64,000 nucleotides of DNA from NCBI GenBank assembly GCA_030612025.1, contig JAUWOR010000007.1:15104-79103 (forward strand). Reading direction: 5' to 3'. A model generated the notes under the pieces. The model saw only the letters and a program-made list of their open reading frames with translations. It ran no database searches and was not told the DNA's origin. Shown piece by piece: positions 20,709 through 48,720 of the stretch; position 1 is the first letter of the stretch, and every line of letters starts with the position of its first letter. The DNA comes from Dehalococcoidia bacterium (lineage in GTDB: Bacteria; Chloroflexota; Dehalococcoidia; GIF9; AB-539-J10). The translations under genes were made by a program, and so were the position numbers.

Positions 20709-20838
20709 GGGCGATTAAAAATGTAGTTGCCCAATTTATTGGGCGACTGTGCCTGATAAATCAGGCAACTACAAAAATTTGGCGGTGAGGCATCTCTAGA
20801 ATGCTCAAAATTGAACGAGAAGGTGAAATTAAACAGCC
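20709..20838 (+). repeat. MITE-like element, copy A (GGCTGTTTAA...TTAAACAGCC termini)
   Basis: About 85% identical to the copies at 28020-28207 and 36959-37088. It contains the GCCTGATAAATCAGGC hairpin and ends 27 nt before the glyA ATG with an AAGGAGG RBS in between. Confidence 0.7.
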
Positions 20839-20865
20839 TAAAGAAAGGAAGGAGGTAAGTTAAAG

Positions 20866-28019: not shown

Positions 28020-28207
28020 GGCTGTTTAAAAATGTAGTTGCCCTGTGTAGTAGCGAAGATTACTACACAGGGCGACTGTGCCTGATAAATCAAGCAACTT
28101 TGGCCCTCCATTCATTAAGGCCTGATAAATCAGGCAACTACGAAAATTTGGGAGTGAAACACCTCCGAGATGGCTGAAATTGAACGGGGAATCAAAATTA
28201 AACAGCC
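28020..28207 (+). repeat. MITE-like element, copy B (with nested hairpin repeat and internal partial duplication)
   Basis: The termini and core match copy A. The 33-nt hairpin is inserted in reverse orientation and the CCTGATAAATCA(G/A)GCAACT segment is duplicated. It lies about 195 nt upstream of the co-oriented gene at 28402. Confidence 0.7.
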
Positions 28208-35161: not shown

Positions 35162-35923
35162 CTAGATTTCCTCCTCTTCCTCCTCCTCAGCAGTTATGTC
35201 CCCTCCATAATGAGGAAGCACCACACCCACCTTGCCTCGTCGGTGTTTAGCCCTTTTAGGCAGATTATCAATCATTTTCCTTAATTCTGTGAATGCTTCT
35301 ACTGGCTGTGCTGGCGGAATAACTATGCCATCCATCCCAGCCTCCCATAAATTACCGAGCTCGGCACTGGTGATCAGTGAAGGTAAAGTTACCACAAGCG
35401 GCTTATCCAATAGCTCACTGAACCTTCGGCAAATGAGCAGATATTCCACAGTAATAAATGACTCCTCGCCTCTGTTAATAAACACACCGTCTATCTCAAG
35501 AGCATTAATAGCTCTAACCAAGCCCTGATCCAACGAAGGTTCTATCACCAGAAATTTACCCGCCCCTTCTCCTCGCAGTGCTGCCACAGATGCCTTCATA
35601 TCAAAAACTACAAAGTCGCAGCCTGAGTCAACAAGCTCAGCAGCCCTCTTTTTGCTCATCCCCTTTATAACCACTCCCAGAGGAATATCGCCCATAGCCT
35701 TGACCATTTCCTTCAGGCTTTCGACCTTGGAATTTTGCTTCAATATCAGCCCAGCATCCACATTGCTACCAGTTAAGGCATCAGCTTCCTTGACATCTAC
35801 CCCAGCCAACCCGGCAACAAGCAACATCGGTGAGCTTTTCAGTTTGCTGGCAGCCGCATGGAAACCTATGGGTGATGCTGAAGACTTGGAAAGGTTATGC
35901 AATTTATCCACAAATTTGCTCAT
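35162..35923 (-). CDS. hypothetical protein with poly-Glu C-terminal tail (EEEEEEEI)
   Basis: The start was reassigned to the internal Met (MSKFVDKL), because the upstream part of the track ORF is a read-through of the tRNA. The body looks like alternating beta/alpha (TIM-barrel or Rossmann-like). Function is unknown. Confidence 0.5.
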   Translation of the reverse strand: MSKFVDKLHNLSKSSASPIGFHAAASKLKSSPMLLVAGLAGVDVKEADALTGSNVDAGLILKQNSKVESLKEMVKAMGDIPLGVVIKGMSKKRAAELVDSGCDFVVFDMKASVAALRGEGAGKFLVIEPSLDQGLVRAINALEIDGVFINRGEESFITVEYLLICRRFSELLDKPLVVTLPSLITSAELGNLWEAGMDGIVIPPAQPVEAFTELRKMIDNLPKRAKHRRGKVGVVLPHYGGDITAEEEEEEEI

Positions 35924-35935
35924 CTTACCCCCAAA

Positions 35936-36006
35936 GCCAGCGGTCGGATTCGAACCGACGACCGGCGGTTTACGAAACCGCTGCTCTACCCCTGAGCTAC
36001 GCTGGC
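35936..36006 (-). tRNA. tRNA-Thr (anticodon CGT)
   Basis: A hand-folded cloverleaf shows acceptor GCCAGCG/CGCTGGC, a D-arm GCTCAGGGGTAGAGC, anticodon stem-loop GCGGT-TTCGTAA-ACCGC and T-arm GTCGG-TTCGAAT-CCGAC. CCA is not encoded. Confidence 0.85.
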
Positions 36007-36372
36007 ACGAGATTAGTATAGCTGATGAGATAGGCTCTGACAAACGGTCTTACTAAAATCGCCAAAGCTACTCAGATAGGGGAGTTGAACAACGGTTTTC
36101 TCTAAAACAGACTTCAGAATGATGGGCACACCAATCTATATATAGCGTCCTAAATAATTGCGCATAGACCCTTCAGGCTGAGCCCTCAGGACGAAGTCCT
36201 GTGCAGGGATTAAATCCTAAGCAATATCTAAATTCAAAGATAAAAAATCAAAATTACAAATCAAAGCTCAAAATTAAAATTGCGGGCGCTCTTGACCATC
36301 TATTTTGAATTTTGCTCTGTCATTTTTCCTTTTGCATTTTGATACTTGAATTTATTTAGAATTTGCCCGTAT

Positions 36373-36933
36373 TCATTCCTCTATAGTTATTCGCATTATG
36401 GTGTCACCCTGTTCAATTTTTTCCAGGATATCCCTTCCCTCTATTAGCTGACCAAAGACTGAGTGCTCACCATCAAGGTGATGCTGGGGTGTATAAGTAA
36501 TGAAGAACTGGCAGCCATTGGTATTAGGTCCAGAATTAGCCATTGATAGGGCACCGGCAACATGGGTATGCTCGGTGAATTCATCAGCAAAGGAATAACC
36601 AGGAGTGCCAGTTCCAGTTCCCGTAGGGTCTCCCCCTTGAGCCATAAAGCCCGGTATTACACGATGGAATGTGGTACCGTCGTAAAACCCCTCGCGGGCA
36701 AGGAAGACAAAGTTGTTGACAGTTACTGGAACATCACTAGCGAACAGCTCCAGCACTATATTCCCCTTTTCTGTCTGAATGGTAGCAATGTATTGCTTAC
36801 TGGAATCAATTGTCATCGGTGGTGAGGCTGAGTAAGTTTTAGGCTTTGGCTCTCCACCAGCACATGACGTCGAAAGAAGTGCTAGCAGAACCAAGATGAT
36901 GCCAGCTATTCGGAACAGACCGCCAGTTGTCAT
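36373..36933 (-). CDS. ppiB: peptidyl-prolyl cis-trans isomerase, cyclophilin type, secreted/lipoprotein
   Basis: Cyclophilin motifs ([15 protein letters not shown]; [17 protein letters not shown]) follow an N-terminal signal. The start was moved to MTTGGLF because the track ORF N-terminal extension overlaps MITE copy C. Confidence 0.8.
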
Positions 36934-36958
36934 AAGCTTGCCTCCTTCTTTATTATAA

Positions 36959-37106
36959 AGCTGTTTAATTTTGATTCTCCGTTCAATTTCAGCCATCTCA
37001 GAGGTGTTTCATCCCCAAATTTTTGTAGTTGCCTGATTCATCAGGCACAGTCGCCCAATAAATTGGGCAACTACATTTTTAAACAGCCTTTCTTATAAGG
37101 CTGTTT
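36959..37106 (-). repeat. MITE-like element, copy C (reverse orientation) with extra terminal hairpin
   Basis: The reverse complement matches copies A and B end-to-end. It ends 25 nt upstream of the ppiB ATG with an AAGGAGG RBS, and an additional AAACAGCC-loop-GGCTGTTT hairpin sits at its distal end. Confidence 0.7.
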
Positions 37107-37136
37107 CGCAACACCTAACTGTCACTCTGAGTAAAG

Positions 37137-37487
37137 CTAAGAATCCCTCTTCTCACTTGCAAGGGACTTCTCCAGTTCAGCAATCAAATAAGGGAGATCT
37201 TCGATAATCGTTTGATAAAGGATGTCAAAGTCAATGTCGTCATAGCCGTGAATCAGACGGTTACGCATCCCGATGATTTGTAGCCAAGGAATGCCACCAT
37301 ACTTGGCCTGCCCTTCCGTGGAGACGCGGTTAGCTGCCTCTCCAACAACCTCGATCAATCTCACCAGCGAAAGGTTGAGCATTCGCTCGTTTTCAATGTT
37401 ATGCCTCGTTTTCCCGGCTGCCAATTCCACCGCCTCCTTTGCAGCGTCAAGCATATGTCGCAATCGGATCAAGTCATTCTTTGGCAT
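37137..37487 (-). CDS. hepT: HepT-like RNase toxin (DUF86)
   Basis: The C-terminal Rx4HxY motif (RNRLIHGY) is present and the gene overlaps the upstream mntA by 14 nt. Confidence 0.8.
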   Translation of the reverse strand: MPKNDLIRLRHMLDAAKEAVELAAGKTRHNIENERMLNLSLVRLIEVVGEAANRVSTEGQAKYGGIPWLQIIGMRNRLIHGYDDIDFDILYQTIIEDLPYLIAELEKSLASEKRDS

Positions 37488-37788
37488 ATTGCACCTCTGC
37501 TATTCTAACCACCTCATCGCGGAAATACCTGCTCAAACATTGCGCCGTGTTTATATCCACCTTACGCCCCCCAAATAATTTGGAAAGCTCCAATTCCATA
37601 CTTGCCAGACGGATAAATCCGGGGACATGCCCCGGCTCAAATTCCACCAGTACATCCACATCGCTCTCAGGGCGGAAGTCCTCACGCAGGGCCGAACCAA
37701 ATAAAGAAAGTTTACGGATATGGTGTTCCTGGCAGAATTCAACTATGTTCTCTCGAAGAATGTCAATCTGTATCTCGTTGTTCATCAC
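37474..37788 (-). CDS. mntA: MntA-like minimal nucleotidyltransferase antitoxin
   Basis: Nucleotidyltransferase GS motif and DxD (LFGSALRED...DVDVLVEF) are present, and the gene is paired with hepT. Confidence 0.8.
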   Translation of the reverse strand: MMNNEIQIDILRENIVEFCQEHHIRKLSLFGSALREDFRPESDVDVLVEFEPGHVPGFIRLASMELELSKLFGGRKVDINTAQCLSRYFRDEVVRIAEVQYAKE

Positions 37789-37887
37789 TGCATCTTAATC
37801 ATTTCTCAGAGGCATATTCTGCCTGGAGAAACTCACGGCTATCGAATCTGCCACAACATTGAATTTTAGCACGAATTCTACTAGCTA

Positions 37888-38160
37888 CTCAAAAATTCGC
37901 CTGCTTGATGAAAACTAAAATCAATCACAAAATTCCTTATAATCCTCCCTCCCCTAGCGGGAGGGAGGAAGAGGGAGGGGGAAATTCACCCTCACCTTAC
38001 CTCTCTTGTAAGGAAGAAAAATTCATTACATGAGAGGTATTTTTTCACGATACCATGCGGAAGACTATAAGAATTCATGTAACATGCACCTGGTTACATC
38101 ACCAGGGCGAGTAAACCTAGCCCACCGCCTCTTCCTCAAGGAGAGACCGCTTCTTTTTCC
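37888..38160 (+). repeat. ~275-bp structured direct repeat R1
   Basis: About 90% identical to 40400-40674. Internal hairpins include CCTCCCTCCCC-TAGC-GGGAGGGAGG and ACCTCTCTTGTAA...TTACATGAGAGGT. The 3' end carries a hairpin followed by a T-tract. Confidence 0.7.
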
Positions 38161-38229
38161 TAACGGAGTTTGTTAAACGTTCTGCTATTCCGAAAAGAAG
38201 CGCCAATCGAATTCTAGAGAAATTAAATG

Positions 38230-39200
38230 AACAAAATACAATTAAACTTACGTGATTATCCCTTGACAACAAGTAATCCCTATATTATAATGGAAGCATG
38301 AAGAAATACACAATAGTAGATTTCAACAAAGATTTCCCCGATGATGACGCTTGCCTACAATGGCTAAAGAACTATCTTTATCCTAATGGTATCTTCTGCA
38401 AACAATGTGGAATGGTCACAACACACCACAAAGTAGGTAAACGGCCGTGCTATGCCTGTGCCCGATGTGGTAGTCATGTTTACCCGATGGTAGGGACTAT
38501 CTTTGAGAAATCCGTTACACCGCTCAAGCTCTGGTTCTATGCTATCTTCCTTATAAGTTCTACTCGCTGCGGTATATCAGCCAAGCAACTTCAACGAGAG
38601 TTAGGAGTTACTTACAAAACAGCTTGGCGTATATTCCATGCAATTCGCTCCCTACTACGAGAGGACACCAAGCCTATGTCCGGAGAAGTTGAAATAGACG
38701 AAACTTACATCGGTGGGAAAGCTCATGGCAAGCGTGGCTGTGGTGCCGGGAATAAGACCCTTGTATTCGGCATGGCACAACGACAGGGCGACCTGAAGGC
38801 CTTTGCAACTAGCAACGTCAAACACTCAACTATCTATCCTATTATGAAGCAGCATATCTTACCCCAAAGTATGATTTACACCGATGAATTTACGACGTAC
38901 GATAACCTAAACCAACAAGGTTATCATCACAAACAGGTGCATCATGCCTCAAAAGTCTACGTTTCTGGCAATGCACACACCAATACAGTCGAAGGCTTTT
39001 GGAGTGTATTAAAGTGTGGTATTGATGGCGTGTATCATGCCGTAAGTGAGAAGCACTTACAAGGTTATATCAACGAGTATAGTTTCAGGTATAATCACAG
39101 GCAAGATGATAAGCCTATGTTTAAGACGGGTTTGGAGAAGATTTAGGCTTTTCTATTCGGCGACAAGCCTTCTTTAGGGCGAAGCTAAAGCTCTTCTTTG
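38230..39200 (+). mobile_element. IS1595-family insertion sequence (boundaries approximate)
   Basis: A single transposase ORF of about 0.85 kb has short flanks. The terminal inverted repeats could not be defined by eye. Confidence 0.45.
38298..39146 (+). CDS. IS1595-family (ISXO2-like) transposase
   Basis: An N-terminal zinc-ribbon (CKQCG...CYACARCG) is followed by a DDE domain with an IS1595-like C-terminus (NTVEGFWSVLKCGIDGVYHAVSEKHLQGYINEYSFRYNHR). Confidence 0.8.
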   Translation: MKKYTIVDFNKDFPDDDACLQWLKNYLYPNGIFCKQCGMVTTHHKVGKRPCYACARCGSHVYPMVGTIFEKSVTPLKLWFYAIFLISSTRCGISAKQLQRELGVTYKTAWRIFHAIRSLLREDTKPMSGEVEIDETYIGGKAHGKRGCGAGNKTLVFGMAQRQGDLKAFATSNVKHSTIYPIMKQHILPQSMIYTDEFTTYDNLNQQGYHHKQVHHASKVYVSGNAHTNTVEGFWSVLKCGIDGVYHAVSEKHLQGYINEYSFRYNHRQDDKPMFKTGLEKI

Positions 39201-39233
39201 TAGTAGAGATTTGCTTTATGTCTATCGGTTTTG

Positions 39234-39611
39234 TCATGGCTCTATAATACGCAACCTGTCATCGAGTCCTAGGCTTATTTGTAGAGCTTTATCGACTTCG
39301 TCCATTTTCTCTTTACTCAGTTCACCACACTTATCACCCAGTCGTGACTTTTCTATCGTCATTATTGTTGCCAAATTAATATTACAACCCTTCGGTAACC
39401 CACTCTCCTGAGCCGTTACAGGCACAAGGAAAGGAAATGGCTTCTCTGGGGCAGTACTACAACTAGCAACAATTGTTGTTGGGCTGACTTCATTTCCAAT
39501 ATCATTTTGAATTATTAAGGCTGGTCTTGTGCCTATTATTTCAGTACCCCTACCAGGACTCCAATCTACCCAATATAATTCCCCACGCCTACACTTAATC
39601 GCCATTGCCAC
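39234..39611 (-). CDS. mazF: PemK/MazF-family mRNA interferase toxin
   Basis: N-terminal GELYWVDWSPGRGTEIIGTRPALIIQND matches the MazF/PemK fold signature. Confidence 0.8.
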   Translation of the reverse strand: MAMAIKCRRGELYWVDWSPGRGTEIIGTRPALIIQNDIGNEVSPTTIVASCSTAPEKPFPFLVPVTAQESGLPKGCNINLATIMTIEKSRLGDKCGELSKEKMDEVDKALQISLGLDDRLRIIEP

Positions 39612-39612
39612 A

Positions 39613-39858
39613 TTATTTCCACTCAGGCAAGACCTCGTGTGCTATTTCCATAGCTTCTCTCGCAACTTGCAGGTTTCCCTCTGCCATGACTCTATAACCC
39701 TCTACCATCTCCTCACGTAAACGCTTATCTGCAAACTCCTGCAAACACGTAGAAAACACTTTGCTACGACTTACATTCCACTCGTTTGCAATTTCATCGA
39801 TCAATGCGATTAAGTCACGAGGCACACTAATAGTCAACTTCGCCACCTTCACAGTCAT
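39613..39858 (-). CDS. antitoxin (RHH/MazE-like) for the MazF-family toxin
   Basis: An 81-aa ORF sits immediately upstream with only a 1-nt gap. An N-terminal beta-strand plus helices is consistent with an RHH/SpoVT-AbrB antitoxin. Confidence 0.6.
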   Translation of the reverse strand: MTVKVAKLTISVPRDLIALIDEIANEWNVSRSKVFSTCLQEFADKRLREEMVEGYRVMAEGNLQVAREAMEIAHEVLPEWK

Positions 39859-40029
39859 AACTTTCCTCCTTACATTATGTTATGATATATTTGGAGTAAA
39901 AATATAACTTAACAAAAATTATTTGTCAACTTGCGTTGATGGGATAATCACGTAAAATTATTAAAGAGGGAAAGGGAACAAGACCGCCAGTTTTCATATT
40001 TTCAGAATTAATCGAAATCGTTGGGTAAA

Positions 40030-40330
40030 GAATTTGTGCGTGTCATAAATGGCGTGCAACCCCAATAGTGCGCCACAAAATAGAAATTATGGCGTGCAAG
40101 CAATTTAGTGGGACATAGATGGCTCGCAAATCGATTTTTTGTCCAATATCCCTAGAAAAATGACTTGTGGGCGATATTGTGCATCATAATCGGCAATTTT
40201 TGGCACACAAAAAGATTTGTGTGCCATTTTGGAATGCAAAGACGATTAGTGTGCCACAATTCTTGATTTATGGCACACAAGAAGGTTTGTGGGACATAAA
40301 TGAGACACAAAAGGCAGTTTGAGACTGCAA
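40030..40330. promoter_or_regulatory. iteron-like array of TGGCRCRCAA / TTGYGYGCCA sites
   Basis: At least 10 copies occur in both orientations within 300 bp. One is a perfect 10-bp inverted repeat spaced by 6 bp (TGGCACACAA-AAAGAT-TTGTGTGCCA at 40201-40226). The array lies upstream of the mazEF-like operon. Confidence 0.5.
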
Positions 40331-40399
40331 TGCAACGATATTCGGCAGAAATAAAGAGAGGGTAGTCAGGTCTGGCACTACCTCAGCTAAAGCGCTGCA

Positions 40400-40674
40400 C
40401 TCAGAAAATCGCCTGCTTGATGAAAACTATAGTCAATCACAAAATTCCTTATAATCCTCCCTCCCCTAGCGGGAGGGAGTTAGAGGGAGGGGGAAATTCA
40501 CCCTCACCTAACCTCTCTTGTAAGGAAGAAAAATTCATTACATGAGAGGTATTTTTTCACGATACTATGCGGAAGACTATAAGAATTTATGTAACATGCG
40601 CCCGGTTATATCACCAGGGCGAGTAACTTTGCTCCGACGGTCTCTTCCTCGTGAAGAGGCCGTTTTCTTTTTTC
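40400..40674 (+). repeat. ~275-bp structured direct repeat R2
   Basis: This is the second copy of R1. It ends with GGTCTCTTC-CTCGT-GAAGAGGCC followed by GTTTTCTTTTTTC, a terminator-like hairpin plus T-tract. Confidence 0.7.
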
Positions 40675-40779
40675 TATGATTCTCAACGCATAAAGTATAT
40701 CTTCAAATGGCGCTAAGGCATATTAGGCCGATGAAGTTTAAGGAGAGCCTAAAGATTTATCGAAGGCTCTGAGCTCTAC

Positions 40780-42231
40780 CTAAAACCTAGTTTTTCGCCG
40801 CACCTGAAACGTGAATGAAAGAAGTTTCTCGAGAAAGTCATTTACCGCCTTCGACTTGTCATTATAGGCTATCGTCTCTTTACCAATCATGAGGGTAGCA
40901 TAAGCGAGTTTTGCCTCTTCTGACCCTGCCATTTCCCGCTTGTAGTCAGGGTTGACTTTATTAACTTGGACAACGCCGCTCAGGAAACGACTATGATGCG
41001 AAGGGCCATCCTCGAAAGGCACCTCCGCAAAAGCAATTCGCATACCACCCGGGCGTGAAGTGTCACCAGGCTTAGTTGACCGAGTTCCTGTCTCCCTTCC
41101 CTTGTGGGTTCCCGTATGTTGACTGATAGGTGCCTTTTGCCTTCGTAGTCCACCAAGAAGCTCTAAACCTTTGAAATCTCCTTGATTAAGGATTTCCCTC
41201 GCAAGCTCAATCGCCCTCCGTTGAATCTGTGTAAGCTTTTTCTCCTCCGCTTCCAGCCTTAATTCGTCTACCTCATCCTCAATCGAAGGGCGGAGCTTGT
41301 CAAGTTCTAACAAAAATTGGATCCAGTCCTGATTTTCTTCAAAACCAGTCCTTGCAGGAAGTGGCTTAAGAAAGTCAGCATCAATATAACCCTTGAGAAA
41401 TCCGCTTGCATAAACGCTTTCCTCAAGACCGTAGGCTTGAATCGCCTTCACATCATCAACTACAGGAATCCCAGTGTGCCGAATGGAAACTTTGCTTTTC
41501 CCGGAAGCATCAAACCAAAATTGACAATTAAAAACCTTTTGCCAGTCGCTTGAAAAATGCACTTCTCTAAACGCTTCCCCAACACCGGGGAGACTTATTT
41601 CTAATGGTTCCACCTTATAAATCTTGCCAGCGCAAGTTATCGTGATTTTTAAATTCCCTTCCCTTAGGTAAGCATCAAACTTTTCAGCGAACACATGCTG
41701 TAGTCGTTCCGCTCCTAAGGGGCCACGCAACCTTGTAGGGTCATGCTGTAACCCAGCGATAACGATAGTCATCCCGGGTTCCTTGCGAGATTCTCTTTTA
41801 GTCGCTGTTTCTATCTCAGCATCGTCAGACTGCTTTCTAAGAACAACCTTAATAGTGGGCATGCCTTTTGCTTTCTTGCTATAAAAAGTGCAACTTGTTC
41901 CAACCTGGTTGAAGGCAAAAATCCCAATGCCTAATTCTCCAATTTGAGGTATAGTTAATCCCGGCTTTACTGAATCAGCAACTTTATCAAGTGCTGCCTC
42001 AAATTCCTTCTGGGCCATTCCCGGGGAATTATAGTCAATAGTTATCTTTCCCTTCTCAAGAAGGTAACCTACCTCGCAGGGTCCTTCCATTTCTCCTTTA
42101 TCTCTAGCCTTTCGCCATTCATCCACAGCATTGCTAATATATTCTTTGATAGCATCAGCAGGGTTACGATAAAGGCTTCCAATATAGGTGAGAAGGTTAG
42201 CCATGTTTCCTCGGATTTTCTTCTTTGCCAT
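40780..42231 (-). CDS. GHKL-superfamily ATPase (HATPase_c / MORC-Hsp90-MutL-like Bergerat fold) with coiled-coil C-terminal region
   Basis: The N box (EYISNAVDEW), G1 box (DYNSPGM) and G2 box (GELGIGIFA) occur in the canonical order within the first ~110 aa. A predicted coiled coil (EDEVDELRLEAEEKKLTQIQRRAIELARE) precedes a ~130-aa C-terminal region of unknown fold. Confidence 0.55.
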   Translation of the reverse strand: MAKKKIRGNMANLLTYIGSLYRNPADAIKEYISNAVDEWRKARDKGEMEGPCEVGYLLEKGKITIDYNSPGMAQKEFEAALDKVADSVKPGLTIPQIGELGIGIFAFNQVGTSCTFYSKKAKGMPTIKVVLRKQSDDAEIETATKRESRKEPGMTIVIAGLQHDPTRLRGPLGAERLQHVFAEKFDAYLREGNLKITITCAGKIYKVEPLEISLPGVGEAFREVHFSSDWQKVFNCQFWFDASGKSKVSIRHTGIPVVDDVKAIQAYGLEESVYASGFLKGYIDADFLKPLPARTGFEENQDWIQFLLELDKLRPSIEDEVDELRLEAEEKKLTQIQRRAIELAREILNQGDFKGLELLGGLRRQKAPISQHTGTHKGRETGTRSTKPGDTSRPGGMRIAFAEVPFEDGPSHHSRFLSGVVQVNKVNPDYKREMAGSEEAKLAYATLMIGKETIAYNDKSKAVNDFLEKLLSFTFQVRRKTRF

Positions 42232-42237
42232 TTCTCT

Positions 42238-42690
42238 TTACCTCCCTTTGAAGGATTGAAATTGGATTGTGGTGAGGGCGAGCCACCTTATAAATTTATC
42301 CTCCTCACTCATCATAGCAAGGAGACTAGAAATATAGCCTATATCAGATGCATCAAGTTCTTTGCGAAATACCTCTCTTGCATCAGGGTTATTGTCTCGA
42401 AACCACCGTAGTTCGTCTTCAAGTAGAAGTAAAAGATATTTAATTTTTTCTGTTCTGTGCCTTGCCTCTTCAATCTGGCGATAAACCTCGGGCCTTTCTT
42501 TGCTTTCTAGGAAAGTTCTAATCTTAGTCAAATTAGCTTCAGAGGGTTTCCTGGCACCTTTACCATGTTGAAACCACTTCTTAATAGTGCTATAGGGAAT
42601 CCCAAGCGTGTTAGCGAGCTCTTTTCTTGGAATACCAAGCCTCTTAGCATAAGTATCCAATCCCAAAAGCACTGTTTCTATTGTTTCCAT
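42238..42690 (-). CDS. HTH-domain protein (putative regulator/partner of the GHKL ATPase)
   Basis: An N-terminal helix-turn-helix (RKELANTLGIPYSTIKKWFQHGKG) is present. The stop lies 6 nt before the ATPase start, implying the same operon. Confidence 0.5.
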   Translation of the reverse strand: METIETVLLGLDTYAKRLGIPRKELANTLGIPYSTIKKWFQHGKGARKPSEANLTKIRTFLESKERPEVYRQIEEARHRTEKIKYLLLLLEDELRWFRDNNPDAREVFRKELDASDIGYISSLLAMMSEEDKFIRWLALTTIQFQSFKGR

Positions 42691-42746
42691 CGTTTATCCT
42701 TCGTAGTTCCTCATTCGCCCGCTCCAAATCCGCTAGTTGGGCTATC

Positions 42747-42965
42747 TCATCCTTGCTTCTCAAGGCCCTTGGCTATCGCCTCATATTCAAAAGGAAATTT
42801 ATTCCTGAACCATGCCCTATATACCCATTTATGGCATTCACAAGCATTGATCTTGGCTATTCCATCAGATTTAAGTTCTGGATTACAAAATGGGCAAATC
42901 CTGTTATCTGTAATTTTCAGTTCGCTTCTATGTAATGCTTTTTTGATCCAACCAGCTTCTGACAT
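42747..42965 (-). CDS. small zinc-finger protein (CPFC...CECH)
   Basis: A 72-aa protein with two Cys pairs spaced like a zinc ribbon. It is the first gene of the ZnF-HTH-ATPase operon and is preceded by a 40-bp repeat box. Confidence 0.35.
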   Translation of the reverse strand: MSEAGWIKKALHRSELKITDNRICPFCNPELKSDGIAKINACECHKWVYRAWFRNKFPFEYEAIAKGLEKQG

Positions 42966-43197
42966 TTTTAGCTTCCATCACAAGGTGCAGTTGTCCAAGT
43001 AATCGTAATTGTAACACTTGCAGAGGAATTATTCGCTTCACTCAGATTGCTAGTTACTCATTATCAGGAATACTGGTATCAGTAGCAGAAGCACTGCTAT
43101 CAGAGATACCTAAGCAAACTGCTATCAACACCAGAGTAACTAAGACAATCAACTTTTCCATCATTCCTACTTAGTCTGGCTCCTGTTCACTCAATTT

Positions 43198-43560
43198 CTA
43201 GCTATCCTGCTGCCTAGTATTTAAGGTATTGGCTTTAGCATTTTTGCCTGTGTGGGCTTTCTCTTTCCTGAGCTTCCGCCACGTTAGCGAACAATATACT
43301 ACAAGGCTGAAGCCAAGTGCTATGAAAAAATATGCGTCGAACCATCGCCAATGAGGACTTGCTTGCATTGTAACGAGAATACTAATGCCCAGAAAGCAAA
43401 TTGCACCCCCTACACCTAGACCACTCATAATAGCGGTCTGCTTATGTTGTGTTTTAGCTTCCTCCCTCATAGATTGAATCTTATTTTGAATATCAGCTAA
43501 TGTAACGTTATCATTATTTTGCTCCCCTGACATGTCTTTCTCCTTTGTCGTATCAATCAT
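43198..43560 (-). CDS. hypothetical membrane protein (2 TM)
   Basis: A 120-aa protein with two hydrophobic helices and no recognisable motif. Confidence 0.4.
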   Translation of the reverse strand: MIDTTKEKDMSGEQNNDNVTLADIQNKIQSMREEAKTQHKQTAIMSGLGVGGAICFLGISILVTMQASPHWRWFDAYFFIALGFSLVVYCSLTWRKLRKEKAHTGKNAKANTLNTRQQDS

Positions 43561-43757
43561 TTTAGCCGAATTATACCCTCAACAAACCTCAAATAGAAGA
43601 GCCGTTAAGTTTGGGGATAGATAGTTTGAGGCTTTACTGTGGGCTTAAGGTTTCACCTTCAAGGGATAGCCCATAATCCTAGAGTTTTCAACCATATCAG
43701 GAGGTCAAGATTAGTCTGAGGTCATTTCGTGGCATTTACCCTGTGCAGTAAGAAATG

Positions 43758-44207
43758 CTATGTTTCCCTATTCCTCTTTTTCGTCTCAACAGAGATGTCT
43801 ACGGGTATATCAGAAACGCCTTCCCAGGCATTCTTTTCTTCATTCCAAATTTGGGTACGAAAGCTATACATCCCCGATTCACTAACCGGGAAGTTCGCCA
43901 CATTCCTTTTTGTTCGTAATCGCTTATGTTTGGAAAGGTCGATAGGATATTCGTTCTCAACTACGACTTTCCCAGTAGGACTTAAGATGGTATCTTTACC
44001 ACGACTATGGCCGGGGTACTCAATTGGTTCCCGTTGCCACGTGGTTACCCATGCGATCTTCACAGGAAACGGAATCATAGGCTCTTCTATGTTGCTTTCC
44101 GACGTCGTTATGCGCACTTCCTCAAGAACGTCAAACAAACTTACGTTATTTGATTCTTTATCTATGACAGCACGTAAACATATGACTGTCCAAATATGCC
44201 GAATCAT
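43758..44207 (-). CDS. hypothetical protein
   Basis: The minus frame has normal amino-acid composition, whereas the overlapping plus ORF (43729-44298) is low-complexity S/T/F-rich. The minus frame was chosen for that reason. Confidence 0.4.
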   Translation of the reverse strand: MIRHIWTVICLRAVIDKESNNVSLFDVLEEVRITTSESNIEEPMIPFPVKIAWVTTWQREPIEYPGHSRGKDTILSPTGKVVVENEYPIDLSKHKRLRTKRNVANFPVSESGMYSFRTQIWNEEKNAWEGVSDIPVDISVETKKRNRET

Positions 44208-44213
44208 TTATTA

Positions 44214-44636
44214 TCATGCCTCCACGGGAGTAAAATCCCGAACACTATTTTCTGAACTAGATACAACGACTTCGCTCTTTTCACCAGCCCATCTATAGTC
44301 CAGTATATCAGCCTCTTCTAATTTGCGACTCTCTACACTAGGTTGGGGACTGGATATTAAGGGAACTGCCTTTGTTGAAAGACGTAGCCCTAGGATCGCT
44401 AAGATTTTCCCAATCCTTCCGATTGTAGGATTTGCGTCTCCTGCTTCTAGCTTGGCTATGTATGATTGGCTTGTCCCTAAAGAGCTTGCCAAGTCTGTCT
44501 GAGTACAACTGGCGATGCGACGTGCTCTAGCCAAAGTTAAAGCAAACTCACTTTTTGCGGCAGCAGCACCAAACTCTTGAGCGAATTCCAAATCTGCGAG
44601 TTCTCTCTCTAAATCTTCCTTGAATGTTCTGTTCAT
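44214..44636 (-). CDS. XRE-family HTH antitoxin (HigA-like)
   Basis: A helix-turn-helix (TQTDLASSLGTSQSYIAKLEAGDANPTIGRIGKILAILG) is present and the gene sits directly downstream of a RelE/ParE-family toxin gene. Confidence 0.65.
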   Translation of the reverse strand: MNRTFKEDLERELADLEFAQEFGAAAAKSEFALTLARARRIASCTQTDLASSLGTSQSYIAKLEAGDANPTIGRIGKILAILGLRLSTKAVPLISSPQPSVESRKLEEADILDYRWAGEKSEVVVSSSENSVRDFTPVEA

Positions 44637-44645
44637 AAGCCCTCC

Positions 44646-44984
44646 TTATTTGTTTGAGCGATATTCATTCAATAGGTCACGGGCTTCGTTAATCTGTCCA
44701 GCCTCGCGCCTCCTCTTTTTTAAGAAGCCATTCAACAAGACAAATTTATTGTCTTGTTTGTCGTAATACACAATAACCCTACATTGGCCCCCTACTAATT
44801 CATATAGGTGACCCTCCCCGATAACCGACTTTAGCATGTTTGTACCAAGAAGCTCCAAACCATATTCTCCAAGCTTCTGTATCTTAGCCATAATGACAGC
44901 CCTTGACCTCTTCTCCAATTTATCAATCCAATCAACTATAGGTTTGTCACCATTAGGCCTTGTATAATAATCAACTTGGTACAC
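44646..44984 (-). CDS. RelE/ParE-superfamily toxin (HigB/Gp49-like)
   Basis: A 112-aa product in the toxin-first gene order typical of higBA. A conserved YELVGGQCRVIVYYD...FVLLNGFLKKRRRE pattern is present. A TTGACA-16-TTATAT promoter lies just upstream. Confidence 0.6.
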   Translation of the reverse strand: MYQVDYYTRPNGDKPIVDWIDKLEKRSRAVIMAKIQKLGEYGLELLGTNMLKSVIGEGHLYELVGGQCRVIVYYDKQDNKFVLLNGFLKKRRREAGQINEARDLLNEYRSNK

Positions 44985-45346
44985 GTCTAATATAACCCCT
45001 TAGGTGATATTTGTCAATACCAGCCTCCTTTCATGGCGGCCGTGGGTCCCACAGTCTTGGGACTCAATTAACTGAACTACTGCTCAGGCAAAGACAGAGT
45101 TCACCAAGTAATCGTAATTGTAGCACTTGCTGAGGAATCAGAGATACACTAGGTCGGTAAGGTTTGAGGATAAGTTAAGGCTTTGTCGTAGGCTTGAGGC
45201 TCTGTCTACAGATGGCGAAAAAGACTAAATCAGATCTGAAGGGTGTTGGAGCATGGAGGAGTAACTTTTGAGAACGGATTTGGCTCTTGGTGGCAAACAC
45301 AACAGTACGCTATATTGCGCAATTGAAAAGGATTAACAAACCCAAG

Positions 45347-46435
45347 TCAGTTACTTAAAGTACTATTACTAAGTTGTGCCAACTTGAGTTTATAGATAAA
45401 ACCCACATATTTTCTTAGAATACTTACATCGTTGTTGAGTAAATCCAAATTACTTTCTAAATCTGCAACTAAAGTGTCTATTCCCTCATCAAATTTTCGC
45501 AATGAATTCGAAACTTGCTGAGTATAATGAATGAGCCCTACGCAAAAATCGTTGATTCCCTTCAACTTTTTTTCGTTGCTTCTTATCACTTCTGTGAATT
45601 TGTCGGTATAATCTAGCTGATGGAATAGGACAATTTTAGGGATGTCTTCTTTTCTAATTGCTTTGTTCTGGTTTTTGTCAAGATATTCAACAAACTTCTT
45701 GAATCGAAAAAGTTCTTTTTTGTAAGAACAGAGTTGCTTTCTATAGGTAGTTAGTTTTTTAAGAAGCTTTTTCTTTAAATTAATATTTCTCTTCTGAATT
45801 CCACTTATTTTATTAGAAGCAAAGTAAAATTGTTTATCTGATAAATACCCATAAGTTGTTGTGGATGTTTGTGTTAAGATAACATAGTTTTTTGTTTCCT
45901 CAACTTTGCGGCCAATCTCCATGACTTTCGAAAAGCCTAAAATCATAGCTGTAAGGTCAGTGTAGACCTCGTTATCCTTTTCTTTATGCCACAAGGAATG
46001 CAAAAGGATATGAGAAAGTTCGTGCGCCATAATAGCCATAAATGTTTCAGGGTGTTCTAGGCAATTATCGCTGATCTTTACGGCTATCGGGAAATTTTTT
46101 AACTCTGATGTGCCATATAAGGGGAGATAACTTGGAATAGAGACTTGAGCAGTAATGCTCTCTATCCCTCGGCCAGCATGGTCTGTCTTGGCTAAATCAG
46201 TACTCTCAAATCTATTACTGTAACTTCGTGGCTCATATTTTGCCGGCACATAGGAAAGATTGATTGCAATGGGTAAGCCCAAATAATTTGCGATGTTTCT
46301 TATACATCCCTTTATATTTCCTGCGCGGAAGGGTTTATGTAGTATCTCCCTGGGAATCTCTTCTTTGACTCCCAGTAGGTTAACTAACTCATCTATTGCA
46401 TTATTAATGTATTTGTTGGCTATACTATTACCCAT
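45347..46435 (-). CDS. HExxH zinc-metallopeptidase-like protein with long Lys-rich coiled-coil C-terminal half
   Basis: MAHELSHILLH contains an HExxH motif with a downstream Glu. The gene is visibly AT-rich relative to its flanks. The C-terminal 180 aa are K/L/E-rich (KKKLLKKLTTYRKQL...). Confidence 0.5.
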   Translation of the reverse strand: MGNSIANKYINNAIDELVNLLGVKEEIPREILHKPFRAGNIKGCIRNIANYLGLPIAINLSYVPAKYEPRSYSNRFESTDLAKTDHAGRGIESITAQVSIPSYLPLYGTSELKNFPIAVKISDNCLEHPETFMAIMAHELSHILLHSLWHKEKDNEVYTDLTAMILGFSKVMEIGRKVEETKNYVILTQTSTTTYGYLSDKQFYFASNKISGIQKRNINLKKKLLKKLTTYRKQLCSYKKELFRFKKFVEYLDKNQNKAIRKEDIPKIVLFHQLDYTDKFTEVIRSNEKKLKGINDFCVGLIHYTQQVSNSLRKFDEGIDTLVADLESNLDLLNNDVSILRKYVGFIYKLKLAQLSNSTLSN

Positions 46436-46603
46436 AATTATTATCTTAGGTCAATTACTGTACTGAATTGGTATTATCTGATACATCTACACTGGTATTC
46501 ACCTCATCATCGGCAATACTTGATAAGAGGAAGCCTGCTAACATTATTAAGCAACCAAATTAAGCGACCAAAACAATCAGGCTTTTCATTATCTCCGTCT
46601 ACG

Positions 46604-47452
46604 TTATAGTTCGCCCCAGCCGTCAAGAGAAGAACTGGTATTAGTTAGCATATCAGAAACGAAGACTCCGATTAATTGCCCTACAGTTGTGGGTGTAGCG
46701 TGGTTTAGGCCCAGTTTCCATAGCTCTATTATTTTCTTACCGACCTCACTATTGCAGAGCGCTTCGTAGTCAAAAGCGAAGCCGTTCTGAGCTGTAGTTG
46801 AGAGCACTTTTTTGAGGTCACGTGAAATTAGGGGGTCATATGTAACGCACGATACCGATGCCAAGTGGAGAAAATCGAGGGTGGTCAGGGTAAGGTCCTG
46901 ATAGAAATATAATCTCCTCTCTAACCACTCTGACGCCCAAACATTTGAGATTTCCTTCGGCATGTTGGGTGGACAACCAACTGGTCGAAGAAACCACAGG
47001 TTTGCCAATAGACCCAACGCTTTCAGTTGCCTGAGATTTAACATTGGGACTGCGTCACAAGCTAACTTACTGCATAAAGCAAATAAGCTTTCTGGACTTT
47101 GTGTTAATCTATCCGAGACTAATCTTGCAAGCAGCTCATGCTTTTGCCTATCGCCTGTTTGCGCACTTGAAATCAGAGCTTTTTGCAAAAGGACAGAGAA
47201 ATCAGGGTGATTTAGAGAATCGCCTATAATCTTCTTGTATTGTTCTCCTTGCTGCTCCAGTGCTTTTACTCTCTTGGCCAACTGGTCTAGAAAGTCTAGC
47301 GAGTTCTGTTGAGCTTCTTCACTTGCTTTTGGTGCATGGTCTTTAAAATACGTTGAAAGCCACTTCTCACCTAAATCCCATGCTCTACCAACAAACTTCC
47401 CAGCTACTCCGCCAACGGCTGCGCTTATGACAACGACTGATAACGGCTCCAT
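46604..47452 (-). CDS. hypothetical protein
   Basis: A 282-aa ORF with no motif I can name. It is the last gene before the tRNA-fragment repeat. Confidence 0.45.
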   Translation of the reverse strand: MEPLSVVVISAAVGGVAGKFVGRAWDLGEKWLSTYFKDHAPKASEEAQQNSLDFLDQLAKRVKALEQQGEQYKKIIGDSLNHPDFSVLLQKALISSAQTGDRQKHELLARLVSDRLTQSPESLFALCSKLACDAVPMLNLRQLKALGLLANLWFLRPVGCPPNMPKEISNVWASEWLERRLYFYQDLTLTTLDFLHLASVSCVTYDPLISRDLKKVLSTTAQNGFAFDYEALCNSEVGKKIIELWKLGLNHATPTTVGQLIGVFVSDMLTNTSSSLDGWGEL

Positions 47453-47599
47453 ACGTCTCCCTCTTTACAATCAACCAGTCACACTGGCATAACGCCAATC
47501 GGCCTTTTCACCGCCACCGCCTCTTAAATCAATTATACCCTCAACCAACCAAATAGAAAACCTGAACAAGCTCGACATTTGTTTAACCCAGAGGAATGC

Positions 47600-47668
47600 C
47601 AAACTGCTGCTCTGCCCCTGAGCTACGCTGGCAACGAAATTGGTATAGCTGATGGCAACGATTTTGAC
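47600..47668 (-). pseudogene. tRNA-Thr 5'-half fragment plus upstream flank (att-like direct repeat)
   Basis: The reverse complement of 47607-47632 is GCCAGCGTAGCTCAGGGGCAGAGCAG, matching tRNA-Thr positions 1-26 with 1 mismatch. Homology continues about 35 nt into the 5' flank (TTGGTATAGCTGATG vs TTAGTATAGCTGATG at 36026-36040) and diverges after about tRNA position 33. Confidence 0.6.
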
Positions 47669-47712
47669 TAGCACCCTTGTGCATATGCTGAGGAGTGAGG
47701 AGAGAATATAGC

Positions 47713-48720
47713 TCAGACCTCCAGCTTCTCTGGCTGGAAGGGATGACTATCACGTTCGAAATGCGGCAGGTAGTTTTCTGCTGCGTCCATCTGTTGAATC
47801 CAGCCATTTTCTAATCCAAGCTTGTCAACCAATTCAAGGACTTCGGAATACTCTGAGGCAGAGATTTTACGACACAGCTCGGCTATCTGGGTGGCCAGAT
47901 GTGTGGGATAATATTGAGACATGATACTTACAGTAACGTTGGGCGAAATATCATGCACCAGCCAGGTAAGTGAATCGTAACTGCCTGCCAATCGATTGGG
48001 GAGAATGAGATGACGTATAATTAACCCTCTCTGAGCCAGCCCCCAGCCATCTAATACCAACTCATCCCCGACTTGCCGATGCATCTCCAGAATAGCCCGG
48101 CGAGCTCGCATCACATAATCACTGGTATGAGAGAACTTTGCTGCCCAAGCATCAGAAGCATATCTCAAATCAGGCAGGTAGATATCCACAATCCCGTCCA
48201 GCGCCTGGAGGGATGCCACAGAATCATAGGCATTAGTGTTATAAATTATGGGCACTCTAAGTCCCATAGGCACTGCTTCTAAAACTGCTCGAACTAGCTG
48301 AGGCACAAAATGAGAGGGCGAAATAAAACTGATGTTGTGACATCCTAACTCGTCTTGAAGATATATCATACGTTCAGCCAAAGTATGAAAATCCATCTCC
48401 CTAGAAGCTTGGTATTCTGGATCCTGGCTAATGTGATAGTTCTGACAATAAACGCACCTCATGTTGCAATTACCAAAGAAGATAGCTCCGGTCCCTCTAG
48501 TGCCTGAGATAGCTGGCTCCTCGCCATGATGGTCACAGACCGCAGAGACGATGGGCAAATATCCAGAATGGCAAAACCCTTGCTCATTTTTTAGACGGTT
48601 GACATGGCACTTCCTAGGGCAAATATCACACGATGCCAACTGCATTTCCAGCGCCTCCGCCCGGCGCTCAAGCTCACCGCTATGATATAAGCGAAGATAT
48701 GAAGGTTCCACTCCAGGCAC
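47713..48720 (-). CDS. radical SAM protein, pyruvate formate-lyase-activating-enzyme-like (PflX/COG1313 type)
   Basis: An N-terminal CxxxC (CDICPRKC) and the radical-SAM CxxxCxxC (CNMRCVYCQN) are present. Confidence 0.75.
   Translation of the reverse strand: MPGVEPSYLRLYHSGELERRAEALEMQLASCDICPRKCHVNRLKNEQGFCHSGYLPIVSAVCDHHGEEPAISGTRGTGAIFFGNCNMRCVYCQNYHISQDPEYQASREMDFHTLAERMIYLQDELGCHNISFISPSHFVPQLVRAVLEAVPMGLRVPIIYNTNAYDSVASLQALDGIVDIYLPDLRYASDAWAAKFSHTSDYVMRARRAILEMHRQVGDELVLDGWGLAQRGLIIRHLILPNRLAGSYDSLTWLVHDISPNVTVSIMSQYYPTHLATQIAELCRKISASEYSEVLELVDKLGLENGWIQQMDAAENYLPHFERDSHPFQPEKLEV

Follow-up and report, generated by a model that had tools for sequence, protein, structure and literature searches.

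How an 11.6-kb interval can come to lie between an intact tRNA gene and a displaced copy of the 5' half of the same gene, while no integrase is encoded near it, is the question raised by the locus described here. The locus was studied in a stretch of 64,000 nt (hereafter the window) from a Dehalococcoidia bacterium (Chloroflexota; GIF9; AB-539-J10), which corresponds to positions 15,104-79,103 of the forward strand of contig JAUWOR010000007.1 in assembly GCA_030612025.1. The interval, called the island below, extends from about 36007 to 47600 between tRNA-Thr(CGT) and a radical S-adenosylmethionine (radical-SAM) gene. It is probably the degenerate relic of one or more site-specific integrative elements in tRNA-Thr(CGT), which has lost its integrase and whose cargo has been replaced since. 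An initial annotation of the window had already suggested an old, now immobilised integrative element at this place, and the suggestion is supported by an empty site in relatives, by at least five lineages that carry the tRNA fragment, by a mutated anticodon loop and by the loss of arm repeats.

The intact tRNA-Thr(CGT) is located at 35935-36006 on the minus strand (ARAGORN; Rfam, 69.8 bits). It is the only tRNA found in the window by the two programs, and Rfam gave no other match in the island. The displaced 5' half is a pseudo-fragment of tRNA nt 1-32 at 47601-47632 on the minus strand, with 2 substitutions in comparison to the intact tRNA. No further match to these 32 nt with three or fewer mismatches is present in the 64 kb, and the chance expectation for a match of the tRNA 5' half was 0.00 in 100 shuffles. 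BLAST gave 90.7% identity across 54 nt (47601-47654 against 35975-36027), and beyond this block a weaker homology continues through the -35/-10 pair to about 47668. The piece is thus an end fragment, which starts at tRNA nt 1, is co-oriented with the gene and lies 11.6 kb upstream of its 5' end; the spacing of the two copies (11626 in the repeat search) is within the 2-200 kb length limits of Islander. The homology of the two copies ends in the anticodon loop, where the tRNA reads GCGGT TTCGTAA and the fragment GCAGT TTGGCAT. The pairing of an intact tRNA-Thr with a co-oriented copy of its 5' half and promoter flank, first noticed by reading the sequence, is therefore established by ARAGORN, Rfam, BLAST and the shuffles.

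The two copies also differ in their promoters. The intact gene is preceded by an insert-supplied promoter at 36007-36043 (minus strand), with a -35 box TTGTCA, a 17-nt spacer and a -10 box TATACT (10/12 matches in the promoter scan). The fragment is preceded at 47633-47668 (minus strand) by the original chromosomal tRNA promoter region, which is contiguous with the radical-SAM gene and has decayed to TAGTCA, 17 nt and TATACC; the invariant last T of the -10 box is lost, and the promoter scan makes no call there.

The origin of the two copies was read from related loci, which are denoted here by L and a number. These were recovered with a conserved gene of 253 aa, which forms the chromosomal flank next to the tRNA (35162-35923, minus strand), as the anchor for locus comparisons, at protein identities of 97% (L081-L083), 89% (L084), 88% (L085, L086) and 69% (L087-L090); the more distant contigs L173-L188 were found with the same anchor. 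L093, L095 and L110 were added by a cyclophilin scan of metagenomes, the other matches of which were mostly paralogous contexts. On the fragment side the chromosomal flank is formed by the radical-SAM gene (47713-48720, minus strand; Pfam), which is syntenic in L081, L084, L095 and the outgroups L087-L090. Both flanking genes assign the window to uncultured Dehalococcoidia (Chloroflexota). Its protein was discarded as an anchor, since the genome contig scan gave only relatives of at most 85% identity in which the downstream synteny was not kept, and the 253-aa gene was hence the better choice for close, syntenic relatives. Exact-protein look-ups of the window's radical-SAM and 253-aa proteins gave no match on record.

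In L087-L090 the gene order is DegV, DegV, MarR-like, radical-SAM, tRNA-Thr(CGT), 253-aa gene, LysE and IMP dehydrogenase (IMPDH). There is one tRNA-Thr(CGT), and no cyclophilin, MntA/HepT or cargo gene is found between the radical-SAM and 253-aa genes. The site is empty in these relatives, which are 69% identical in the flanking protein, and the check that the initial annotation had posed beforehand thus returned a single tRNA-Thr without an insert. The native tRNA flank of the outgroups (gctagccaaaatcgccaccatcagctatactaatctcgt; L087, L090) is contiguous with the radical-SAM gene, and it is homologous to the flank of the fragment and not to the distal flank of the intact copy. Hence the 47.6-kb fragment is the original copy, that is, the original chromosomal promoter and 5' half. 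Over the 21 nt next to the tRNA, the intact copy of the window and the native outgroup flank have the same sequence, and beyond -21 the 5' flank of the intact copy is unrelated to that of the outgroups. At the other end, the 3' end of the window tRNA lies 12 nt from the 253-aa gene, as in the island-free L173. Judged from these alignments, the intact tRNA-Thr is a chimera, in which nt 1-33 and the promoter derive from the insert and the 3' half and downstream flank from the original chromosome. The identity block shared by insert and chromosome runs from about -21 to the anticodon loop (about +38), roughly 59 nt. At the old junction (47589-47600, minus strand) the anticodon-loop remnant TTGGCAT, with 4/7 bases changed, is followed by an element arm TCCTCTG, and one stem base of the fragment is mutated as well. 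Homology at this junction ends at 47589 with L081 and at 47599 with L084; arms akin to that of the window are TCTTCTG in L081, TCCTTTA in L085 and TCCTCTC in the viral contig L172.

At least five lineages (L081/L082, L084, L085, L095 and L216) have this fragment together with a flank of the same type, and the siblings that carry it are 88-97% identical in the flanking protein. The four intact tRNA copies that were aligned are invariant across the 5' half, whereas each fragment has 1-5 private substitutions and three fragments share derived changes in the -10 region, which argues that the fragment is a decaying pseudo-sequence inherited from one ancestral event. The divergence of the two copies is thus the decay of a displaced, non-functional fragment. 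It had been taken at first as a sign of the age of the whole insertion; the age stands, although the divergence concerns only the displaced fragment, the intact copies being identical over the 5' half. The cyclophilin and MntA/HepT genes are 86-96% identical across lineages, like the flanking genes, and the insertion is old. Relatives with invariant gene content would have refuted the suggestion, and what was found is cargo that differs from lineage to lineage and outgroups that are empty. Composition was compared as the initial annotation had proposed: over the whole island the tetranucleotide distance amounts to 0.148, against 0.095 ± 0.016 in same-size controls, none of which reaches it, and its GC content is 0.423 against 0.441 in the remainder of the window. 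The tetranucleotide deviation is driven by the variable cargo, which likewise surpasses all same-size control segments, and an insertion sequence, and the conserved part with the cyclophilin, HepT and MntA genes is native-like.

No integrase is encoded in the 64 kb, as judged by Pfam searches of the island and its nearest flanks, by tBLASTn, by precomputed Pfam tables of the syntenic loci and by reading of the open reading frames (ORFs) by eye. Beyond the island and the nearest flanking genes, the ORFs of the window were judged by eye and from the syntenic tables instead of a direct Pfam search, and on this basis the remainder of the 64 kb looked like housekeeping genes. In the island itself, no recombinase or integrase domain was found by Pfam in the sizeable ORFs, and six-frame Pfam searches of seven of the nine intergenic regions (all except the two shortest, 36997-37136 and 46436-46603) gave no integrase. 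When the integrases of L194, L195 and L216 were compared with the whole window by tBLASTn, the best E value was 1.8, and no remnants were found in the window or in the sibling islands. The claim that the interval is without a recombinase has thus held against all three kinds of search. Neither a relaxase nor a phage structural domain was found in the island by the Pfam, NCBIfam and PADLOC scans or six-frame Pfam. The sibling islands have no integrase domain in their gene tables or Pfam scans, with the exception of L216, in which a newer element has landed.

L216 is a sibling contig from the same metagenome as L081, and it contains a live element at the same site. In the orientation of the tRNA it begins with an original-type promoter remnant, HicAB, an original-type fragment (mutated loop and window-type arm) and 5.9 kb of cargo. 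Next come a fragment whose promoter is that of the insert (P' type) and whose loop is intact, and then a 6.75-kb element, which encodes an AAA_25 protein, a 257-aa helix-turn-helix (HTH) protein and a 392-aa tyrosine integrase (PF14659 and PF00589). The stop codon of the integrase is followed after 15 nt by the tRNA-Thr 5' half, which passes via the loop to the 3' half before the contig runs out. Upstream there is a tandem of two 5' remnants that are older still. L216 therefore contains an integrase-bearing element that carries the tRNA 5' half and stands in tandem with older relics. The same new junction is found in L093, in which the MntA-HepT-cyclophilin block is still present. At the recent junctions of L093, L216, L171 and L172, TAACGC(C/A) motifs form pairs with a spacing of 11 nt at a distance of 97-130 nt from the crossover; on the integrase side of L216 there is a further pair at -64/-53. 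These pairs, which were not found at the relic junctions of the window, L081, L084 and L085, can be read as putative arm-type integrase sites.

The position of the break is the same throughout. The upstream 5' copies of the window, L081, L084, L085, L093, both sites (1 and 2) of L216, L171 and L172 break in the anticodon loop or, in L093, at most three bases after it. This loop is the classic crossover site of tyrosine integrases and a canonical sublocation of islands in tRNA genes (tDNA). In the viral contigs L171 and L172 the same loop position is joined to phage DNA, and their other ends lie beyond the contigs. L171 has an HK97-type capsid gene, an AAA_25 gene and a MerR-like small gene, and L172 has an ORF that resembles a large terminase subunit, named by eye only. 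Among the relatives of the L171 capsid no tRNA-Thr site was found; among those of the L172 terminase-like ORF no tRNA-Thr(CGT) site was found, and many have a whole tRNA-Thr(TGT) gene. The viral contigs L200-L213, in which the homologue of this ORF is 37-45% identical, often have a complete tRNA-Thr(TGT) 0.7-1.6 kb downstream, and one of them has tRNA-Tyr instead. A search of viral contigs with the tRNA 3' half gave no match. Displaced 3' halves, the canonical orientation, are known from the chromosomal site: L181-L188 have the intact tRNA, a 6.1-kb integrase-less island and a displaced 3' half before the 253-aa gene, and L087 has a decayed tRNA 3' half 17 nt after its tRNA. The 3' halves of L087 and L181-L188 start at the same loop, and the presence of displaced 5' and 3' halves at one loop across lineages indicates a recurrent target that is struck in both orientations.

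From these observations the following history can be proposed. An ancestral element, or several that accreted, would have entered the tRNA-Thr(CGT) gene of an ancestral Dehalococcoidia by a tyrosine-integrase crossover in the 7-nt anticodon loop. Its attachment site attP would have been of an uncommon type, with the 5' part of the tRNA instead of the 3' part, an identity block of about -21 to +38 and a -35 box of its own. Integration would have rebuilt a working gene by joining the promoter and 5' half of the element to the chromosomal 3' half, and the original promoter and 5' half would have been displaced upstream beside the radical-SAM gene to decay there as a pseudo-fragment. Loss of the integrase, of the arm-type sites and of whatever transfer or phage genes there were would have followed, and the relic, once fixed, would have been inherited vertically and would have served as a sink for accessory genes. 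An IS1595 element with MazEF transposed in, and the 2-7 kb between the old junction and an internal repeat with its terminal motif (R2 and M, described below) would have been replaced independently in each lineage by toxin-antitoxin, defence-like and other modules. That the ancestral event was mediated by an integrase we infer from analogy with L216.

Several points weigh against this history. No integrase is seen in the window's own lineage, which is why the ancestral event had to be reconstructed by that analogy, and the L216 element shares only about 40 nt of the tRNA (from about -3), whereas the block of the window begins at -21; the ancestral element was therefore not the same one. Excision in the outgroups and a lineage that was never occupied are formally inseparable, the site being empty either way. 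The route of cargo replacement is an inference only. Moreover, a cyclophilin gene is odd at the place where an integrase would be expected, and it may have come by later rearrangement; L216 is without it.

It can also be asked whether the island is dead at all. Reportedly, decayed remnants of integrative and conjugative or integrative and mobilizable elements were described as cis-mobilizable elements (CIMEs) by Pavlovic in 2004. If the island were of this type, an L216-type or other genomic integrase could still excise it, by recombining fragment and intact tRNA, or could move it along. Both boundary repeats remain and are co-oriented, the loop TTCGTAA of the L081 fragment is still intact, and integrase-bearing relatives do land at the intact tRNA of such relics to give tandem arrays (L216, L093). 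It is documented for CIMEs that a decayed element retains its att repeats and that newer ones come to lie beside it through accretion (PMC5704250), and the window resembles them in the loss of integration and transfer genes and in the newer elements beside such relics in L093 and L216. CIMEs, on the other hand, are defined by usable attL and attR sites, whereas in the window the upstream overlap has 4/7 mutated bases and a mutated stem base, no TAACGCC pair accompanies either junction, and the arm sites have been lost. Nothing related to conjugation was identified in the window island, and the live relatives are rather phage- or satellite-like, with a capsid (L171), the by-eye terminase-like ORF (L172) and an AAA_25 primase-like gene (L171, L216). 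Together with vertical inheritance across lineages that differ by 3-12% in flanking proteins and the lack of an encoded integrase in the 64 kb, these differences make an island that can still be mobilised unlikely.

A site-specific recombinase could be dispensed with altogether if the island arose by Campbell-type homologous recombination with tRNA-Thr-bearing DNA, or by a local duplication of the 5' half followed by insertions. Phage-borne tRNA genes do exist in the group, since the relatives of L172 often have a whole tRNA-Thr(TGT) near the terminase-like gene, and the recent cargo swaps are most simply explained by homology-driven exchange via common flanks. If two full tRNA genes recombined by a single crossover, however, two full genes would be left, whereas every upstream copy examined ends in the 7-nt loop or a few bases after it and the displaced 3' halves start there. 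The integrase of L216, moreover, is located exactly where a site-specific model puts it. An origin of this sort is accordingly very improbable, and the relic of a site-specific integration remains the preferred reading.

Such a relic has counterparts among known systems. The initial annotation had singled out the duplication of the 5' half and the promoter side as unusual, and this was borne out; the arrangement is rare and yet already catalogued, as 159 of the 3919 islands in Islander (4%) have a 5' tDNA fragment and the other 3760 a 3' fragment, an integrase being required for entry (PMC4383910). The window shares with the 5'-fragment islands an intact tRNA with a co-oriented upstream end fragment, a crossover in the anticodon loop, restoration of the gene by the island and an empty site in relatives, and L216 adds the tandem arrays. 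It differs from them in the absence of an integrase and of arm-type sites, in its uncultured Dehalococcoidia host and in that the element had to bring a promoter. Of the Islander features, the tDNA with its co-oriented fragment, the 5' configuration and the length are thus present and the tyrosine integrase is absent, so the integrase filter of Islander would reject the locus. In dusA-specific integrative elements, the 5' end of the target is likewise replaced by element sequence, and putative -10 and -35 elements still stand upstream after integration (PMC4482086); their target is however a protein-coding gene and not a tRNA, and a dedicated integrase is kept. The genomic islands of Dehalococcoides, a related Dehalococcoidia lineage, are described as site-specific and placed at a small stable-RNA gene, although the target is a different one, ssrA (tmRNA) (PMC3146451). 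In the tRNA-dependent lysogeny of actinobacteriophages, a tyrosine integrase targets a tRNA gene that is not rebuilt, and the phage brings a whole replacement tRNA (PMC10865867). This may apply to the L171 and L172 junctions; it does not fit the window clade and L216, in which the tRNA is rebuilt.

Inside the island, the contents listed by the initial annotation (three toxin-antitoxin pairs, an IS1595 transposase, a repeat pair, an iteron-like palindromic array, an ORF with an HExxH motif, and an HTH protein with a GHKL ATPase) were recovered by Pfam and repeat searches. Its statement that none of this is housekeeping is too strong, since a cyclophilin gene, which is not obviously accessory, was omitted from the list. 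The island is not one homogeneous element. Its tRNA-proximal part, with the cyclophilin and HepT/MntA genes, is conserved, and only the fragment-proximal part turns over.

The cyclophilin-type peptidyl-prolyl isomerase (36373-36996, minus strand; PF00160, E 1e-49) has a lipoprotein-like signal and is probably a lipoprotein. It lies inside the island in most sibling lineages, with 86-91% identity in L081, L084, L085, L093 and L095, and is not found in L216. Homologues of 70-83% identity in other Dehalococcoidia stand in unrelated genomic contexts. Many Dehalococcoidia cyclophilin homologues adjoin tRNA-Ala(GGC), and in L100 (1967-4022) a 39%-identical homologue of the L216 integrase beside tRNA-Ala(GGC) adjoins one of them; this neighbourhood of tRNA-Ala(GGC), cyclophilin and integrase may bear on how the cyclophilin gene entered the island. 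Between the cyclophilin gene and hepT there is a repeat of about 150 nt (36937-37082), with inverted copies at 20715-20859 and 28120-28206 and further copies in L081 and L216, which suggests a small dispersed genomic repeat, possibly similar to miniature inverted-repeat transposable elements or repetitive extragenic palindromic sequences. The HepT/MntA toxin-antitoxin pair follows (HepT 37137-37487, MntA 37474-37788, minus strand; Pfam PF01934, PF18765, PF01909). It is present in L081, L084 and L093; L085 has MntA only, and L095 has a minimal island without MntA/HepT.

Directly upstream of mntA lies R1 (37887-38162, minus strand), a structured non-coding repeat, and its partner R2 is located at 40399-40778 (minus strand); the two were detected as a 228-279-nt repeat pair. 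The left end of R2 is a 60-nt motif, M (40709-40778), and the RNA fold z-score of R2 is -5.3. As a family, the R repeats measure 270-380 nt; no Rfam entry matches them, and they contain four strong hairpins with an RNA fold z-score of -5.3. Further copies are at L081 9679-9772 and L085 3466-3826 and 5479-5843, and within the window and the fetched loci R occurs only at this island. In L085_R1 and L110 the loop of one hairpin, about 27 nt long, lies in inverted orientation in comparison to the other copies, and in L081 and L083 a further, partial copy stands between the tRNA and the cyclophilin gene. A search of viral contigs with the conserved core of R gave no match.

Between R1 and R2 there is an IS1595-family insertion sequence (38251-39952, plus strand), the transposase of which (38298-39146, plus strand) matches PF12762 with E 8e-43 and has an N-terminal zinc ribbon (PF12760). 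Inside it, MazF and a ribbon-helix-helix antitoxin (MazE/MazF; 39858-39234, minus strand; Pfam) form a passenger pair. The terminal inverted repeats lie at 38243-38274 and 39929-39960, an 8-bp target duplication (TAATTTTA / TAAGTTTA) is present, and L085 has a clean empty site (4235-4241), so that transposase, zinc ribbon, inverted repeats and target duplication all agree with the IS1595 family. The L081 copy of the same insertion sequence has lost its left end and the N-terminus of the transposase. Farther on, at 40049-40301 (minus strand), a palindromic array of about six 27-32-nt units of the type TGGCACAC-N9-GTGTGCCA has been conserved in both L081 and L085; the ancestral element may have used it as an origin, a partition site or an operator, of which this would be the relic.

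The fragment-proximal 2-7 kb are wholly different in each lineage. Between the window and L081, the flanks are 95-97% identical in nucleotides; homology is lost 11 nt past the loop remnant, at 47589, and comes back at 40766, the start of R2. Between the junction and R2 there are 6.8 kb in the window against 2.1 kb in L081, the latter with a gene for Shedu SduA_C. The variable stretch of L084 encodes Zincin_1, HicB and a 925-aa N6/N4 methyltransferase, and that of L085 has several ORFs of unknown function; the two R copies of L085 enclose a Fic gene. None of the cargo proteins encoded from the fragment to R2 recurs in another of the lineages compared, and in all four the inner boundary of the variable stretch is a copy of M, the left end of R2.

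In the window two solo copies of M, at 43593-43655 (minus strand; nhmmer E 7e-9) and 45145-45202 (minus strand; E 3e-12), stand in addition to that of R2 and divide the cargo into three co-oriented modules. A promoter-like repeat, Pm (TTCTATTTGG..GTTGAGGGTATAAT), is found just inside the old junction (47531-47567, minus strand) and in L085, L095 and L194, and another copy lies after the first solo M, at 43564-43600. Module 1 (45347-47452, minus strand) encodes a 282-aa protein of the LPO_1073/Vpar_1526 family (46604-47452; NCBIfam NF045477, E 1e-53) and a 362-aa HExxH protein (45347-46435), the gene of which is AT-rich with a GC content of 0.364. Neither has a significant Pfam or a PADLOC match. 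The 282-aa protein was considered as a recombinase and dropped, as homologues are missing from the other islands and its family is LPO_1073. Module 2 (43758-44984, minus strand) is preceded by a promoter TTGACA-17-TATATT at 45017-44989 and consists by Pfam of a HigB-like Gp49 protein (44646-44984), an HTH antitoxin (44214-44636) and a 149-aa ORF (43758-44207); it supplies the third of the island's toxin-antitoxin pairs by Pfam. In PADLOC the unknown cargo proteins had no match and the HigB/HigA-like pair had weak generic matches only. Module 3 (40780-43560, minus strand; Pfam) encodes a 120-aa membrane protein (43198-43560), a 72-aa zinc-ribbon ORF (42747-42965), a 150-aa HTH protein (42238-42690) and a 483-aa GHKL ATPase (40780-42231). 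The GHKL protein family gave 457 matches and no PADLOC match. After the membrane protein gene there is a 36-codon ORF with a lipoprotein-like signal (MMEKLIVLVTLVLIAVCLG...; 43055-43165), a decayed copy of which lies between the LPO_1073 and HExxH genes (46500-46595), and L095 855-985 matches both regions.

The HTH and GHKL module recurs elsewhere as 81-82% identical DNA, beside tRNA-Arg(TCT) in L194 (908-4025) and beside rpsO in L195 (8844-11520). Both copies adjoin small tyrosine-recombinase genes, and that of L195 is then followed by M. The presence of this module with an M-like tail beside recombinases suggests that the modules are remnants of small integrative elements. Cargo was most likely exchanged by replacement through homology within the scaffold that the lineages have in common, while such small integrative modules also accreted or were deleted.

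The window also recalls integrons and clusters of attC sites lacking integron-integrases in its variable array of small modules by a fixed site, a short motif at module ends and no integrase in cis. The five copies of M that were folded as single-stranded DNA, however, gave z-scores of -0.7 to +0.8 and no shared hairpin, which rules out an attC-like structure; there is no IntI, and the modules have their own promoters and mixed orientation. The least probable of all the readings, and one with hardly any credence, is hence an integron-like landing pad of fossil junction and M at which modules ending in M are inserted by a recombinase in trans and expressed from local promoters, because, even though the most variable DNA always adjoins the fragment with M as its inner limit, the three window modules each end in M in the orientation of the fragment, M follows the GHKL module beside a recombinase-like gene at the unrelated L195 locus and the promoter-like repeat recurs at module starts, M is without an attC-like hairpin, no IntI or other recombinase was found by Pfam of the ORFs and of the same seven of nine intergenic regions, the L081, L084 and L085 modules include opposite-strand genes, the fragment's own promoter is decayed, and with about ten copies of M known ordinary duplication and homologous exchange could explain the pattern. 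If true, Dehalococcoidia would have an integron-like system that is set on a dead tRNA attachment site and served by an integrase in trans, and this would be new in kind.

A few kb from the island, the region downstream of IMPDH is a second variable hotspot. In the outgroups L087 (8500-16580) and L090 (8500-16347) it contains a type I restriction-modification cluster with HTH and toxin-antitoxin-like genes, whereas in the window and L081 IMPDH is directly followed by the methionyl-tRNA synthetase gene, without that cluster.

This study describes a well-documented example of a known, uncommon kind of island and reveals no new kind of system. Its value lies in a clean and fully polarised 5'-fragment tRNA island, for which an empty site, relics that differ in age and, at the same place, a live integrase-bearing element are all at hand, in uncultured Dehalococcoidia, of whose mobile elements little is known. 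Such a locus would escape island finders that depend on an integrase. The anticodon loop of one tRNA-Thr(CGT) has been struck repeatedly and in both orientations, and the island shows that a dead element can long persist as a hotspot for the turnover of toxin-antitoxin and defence genes.

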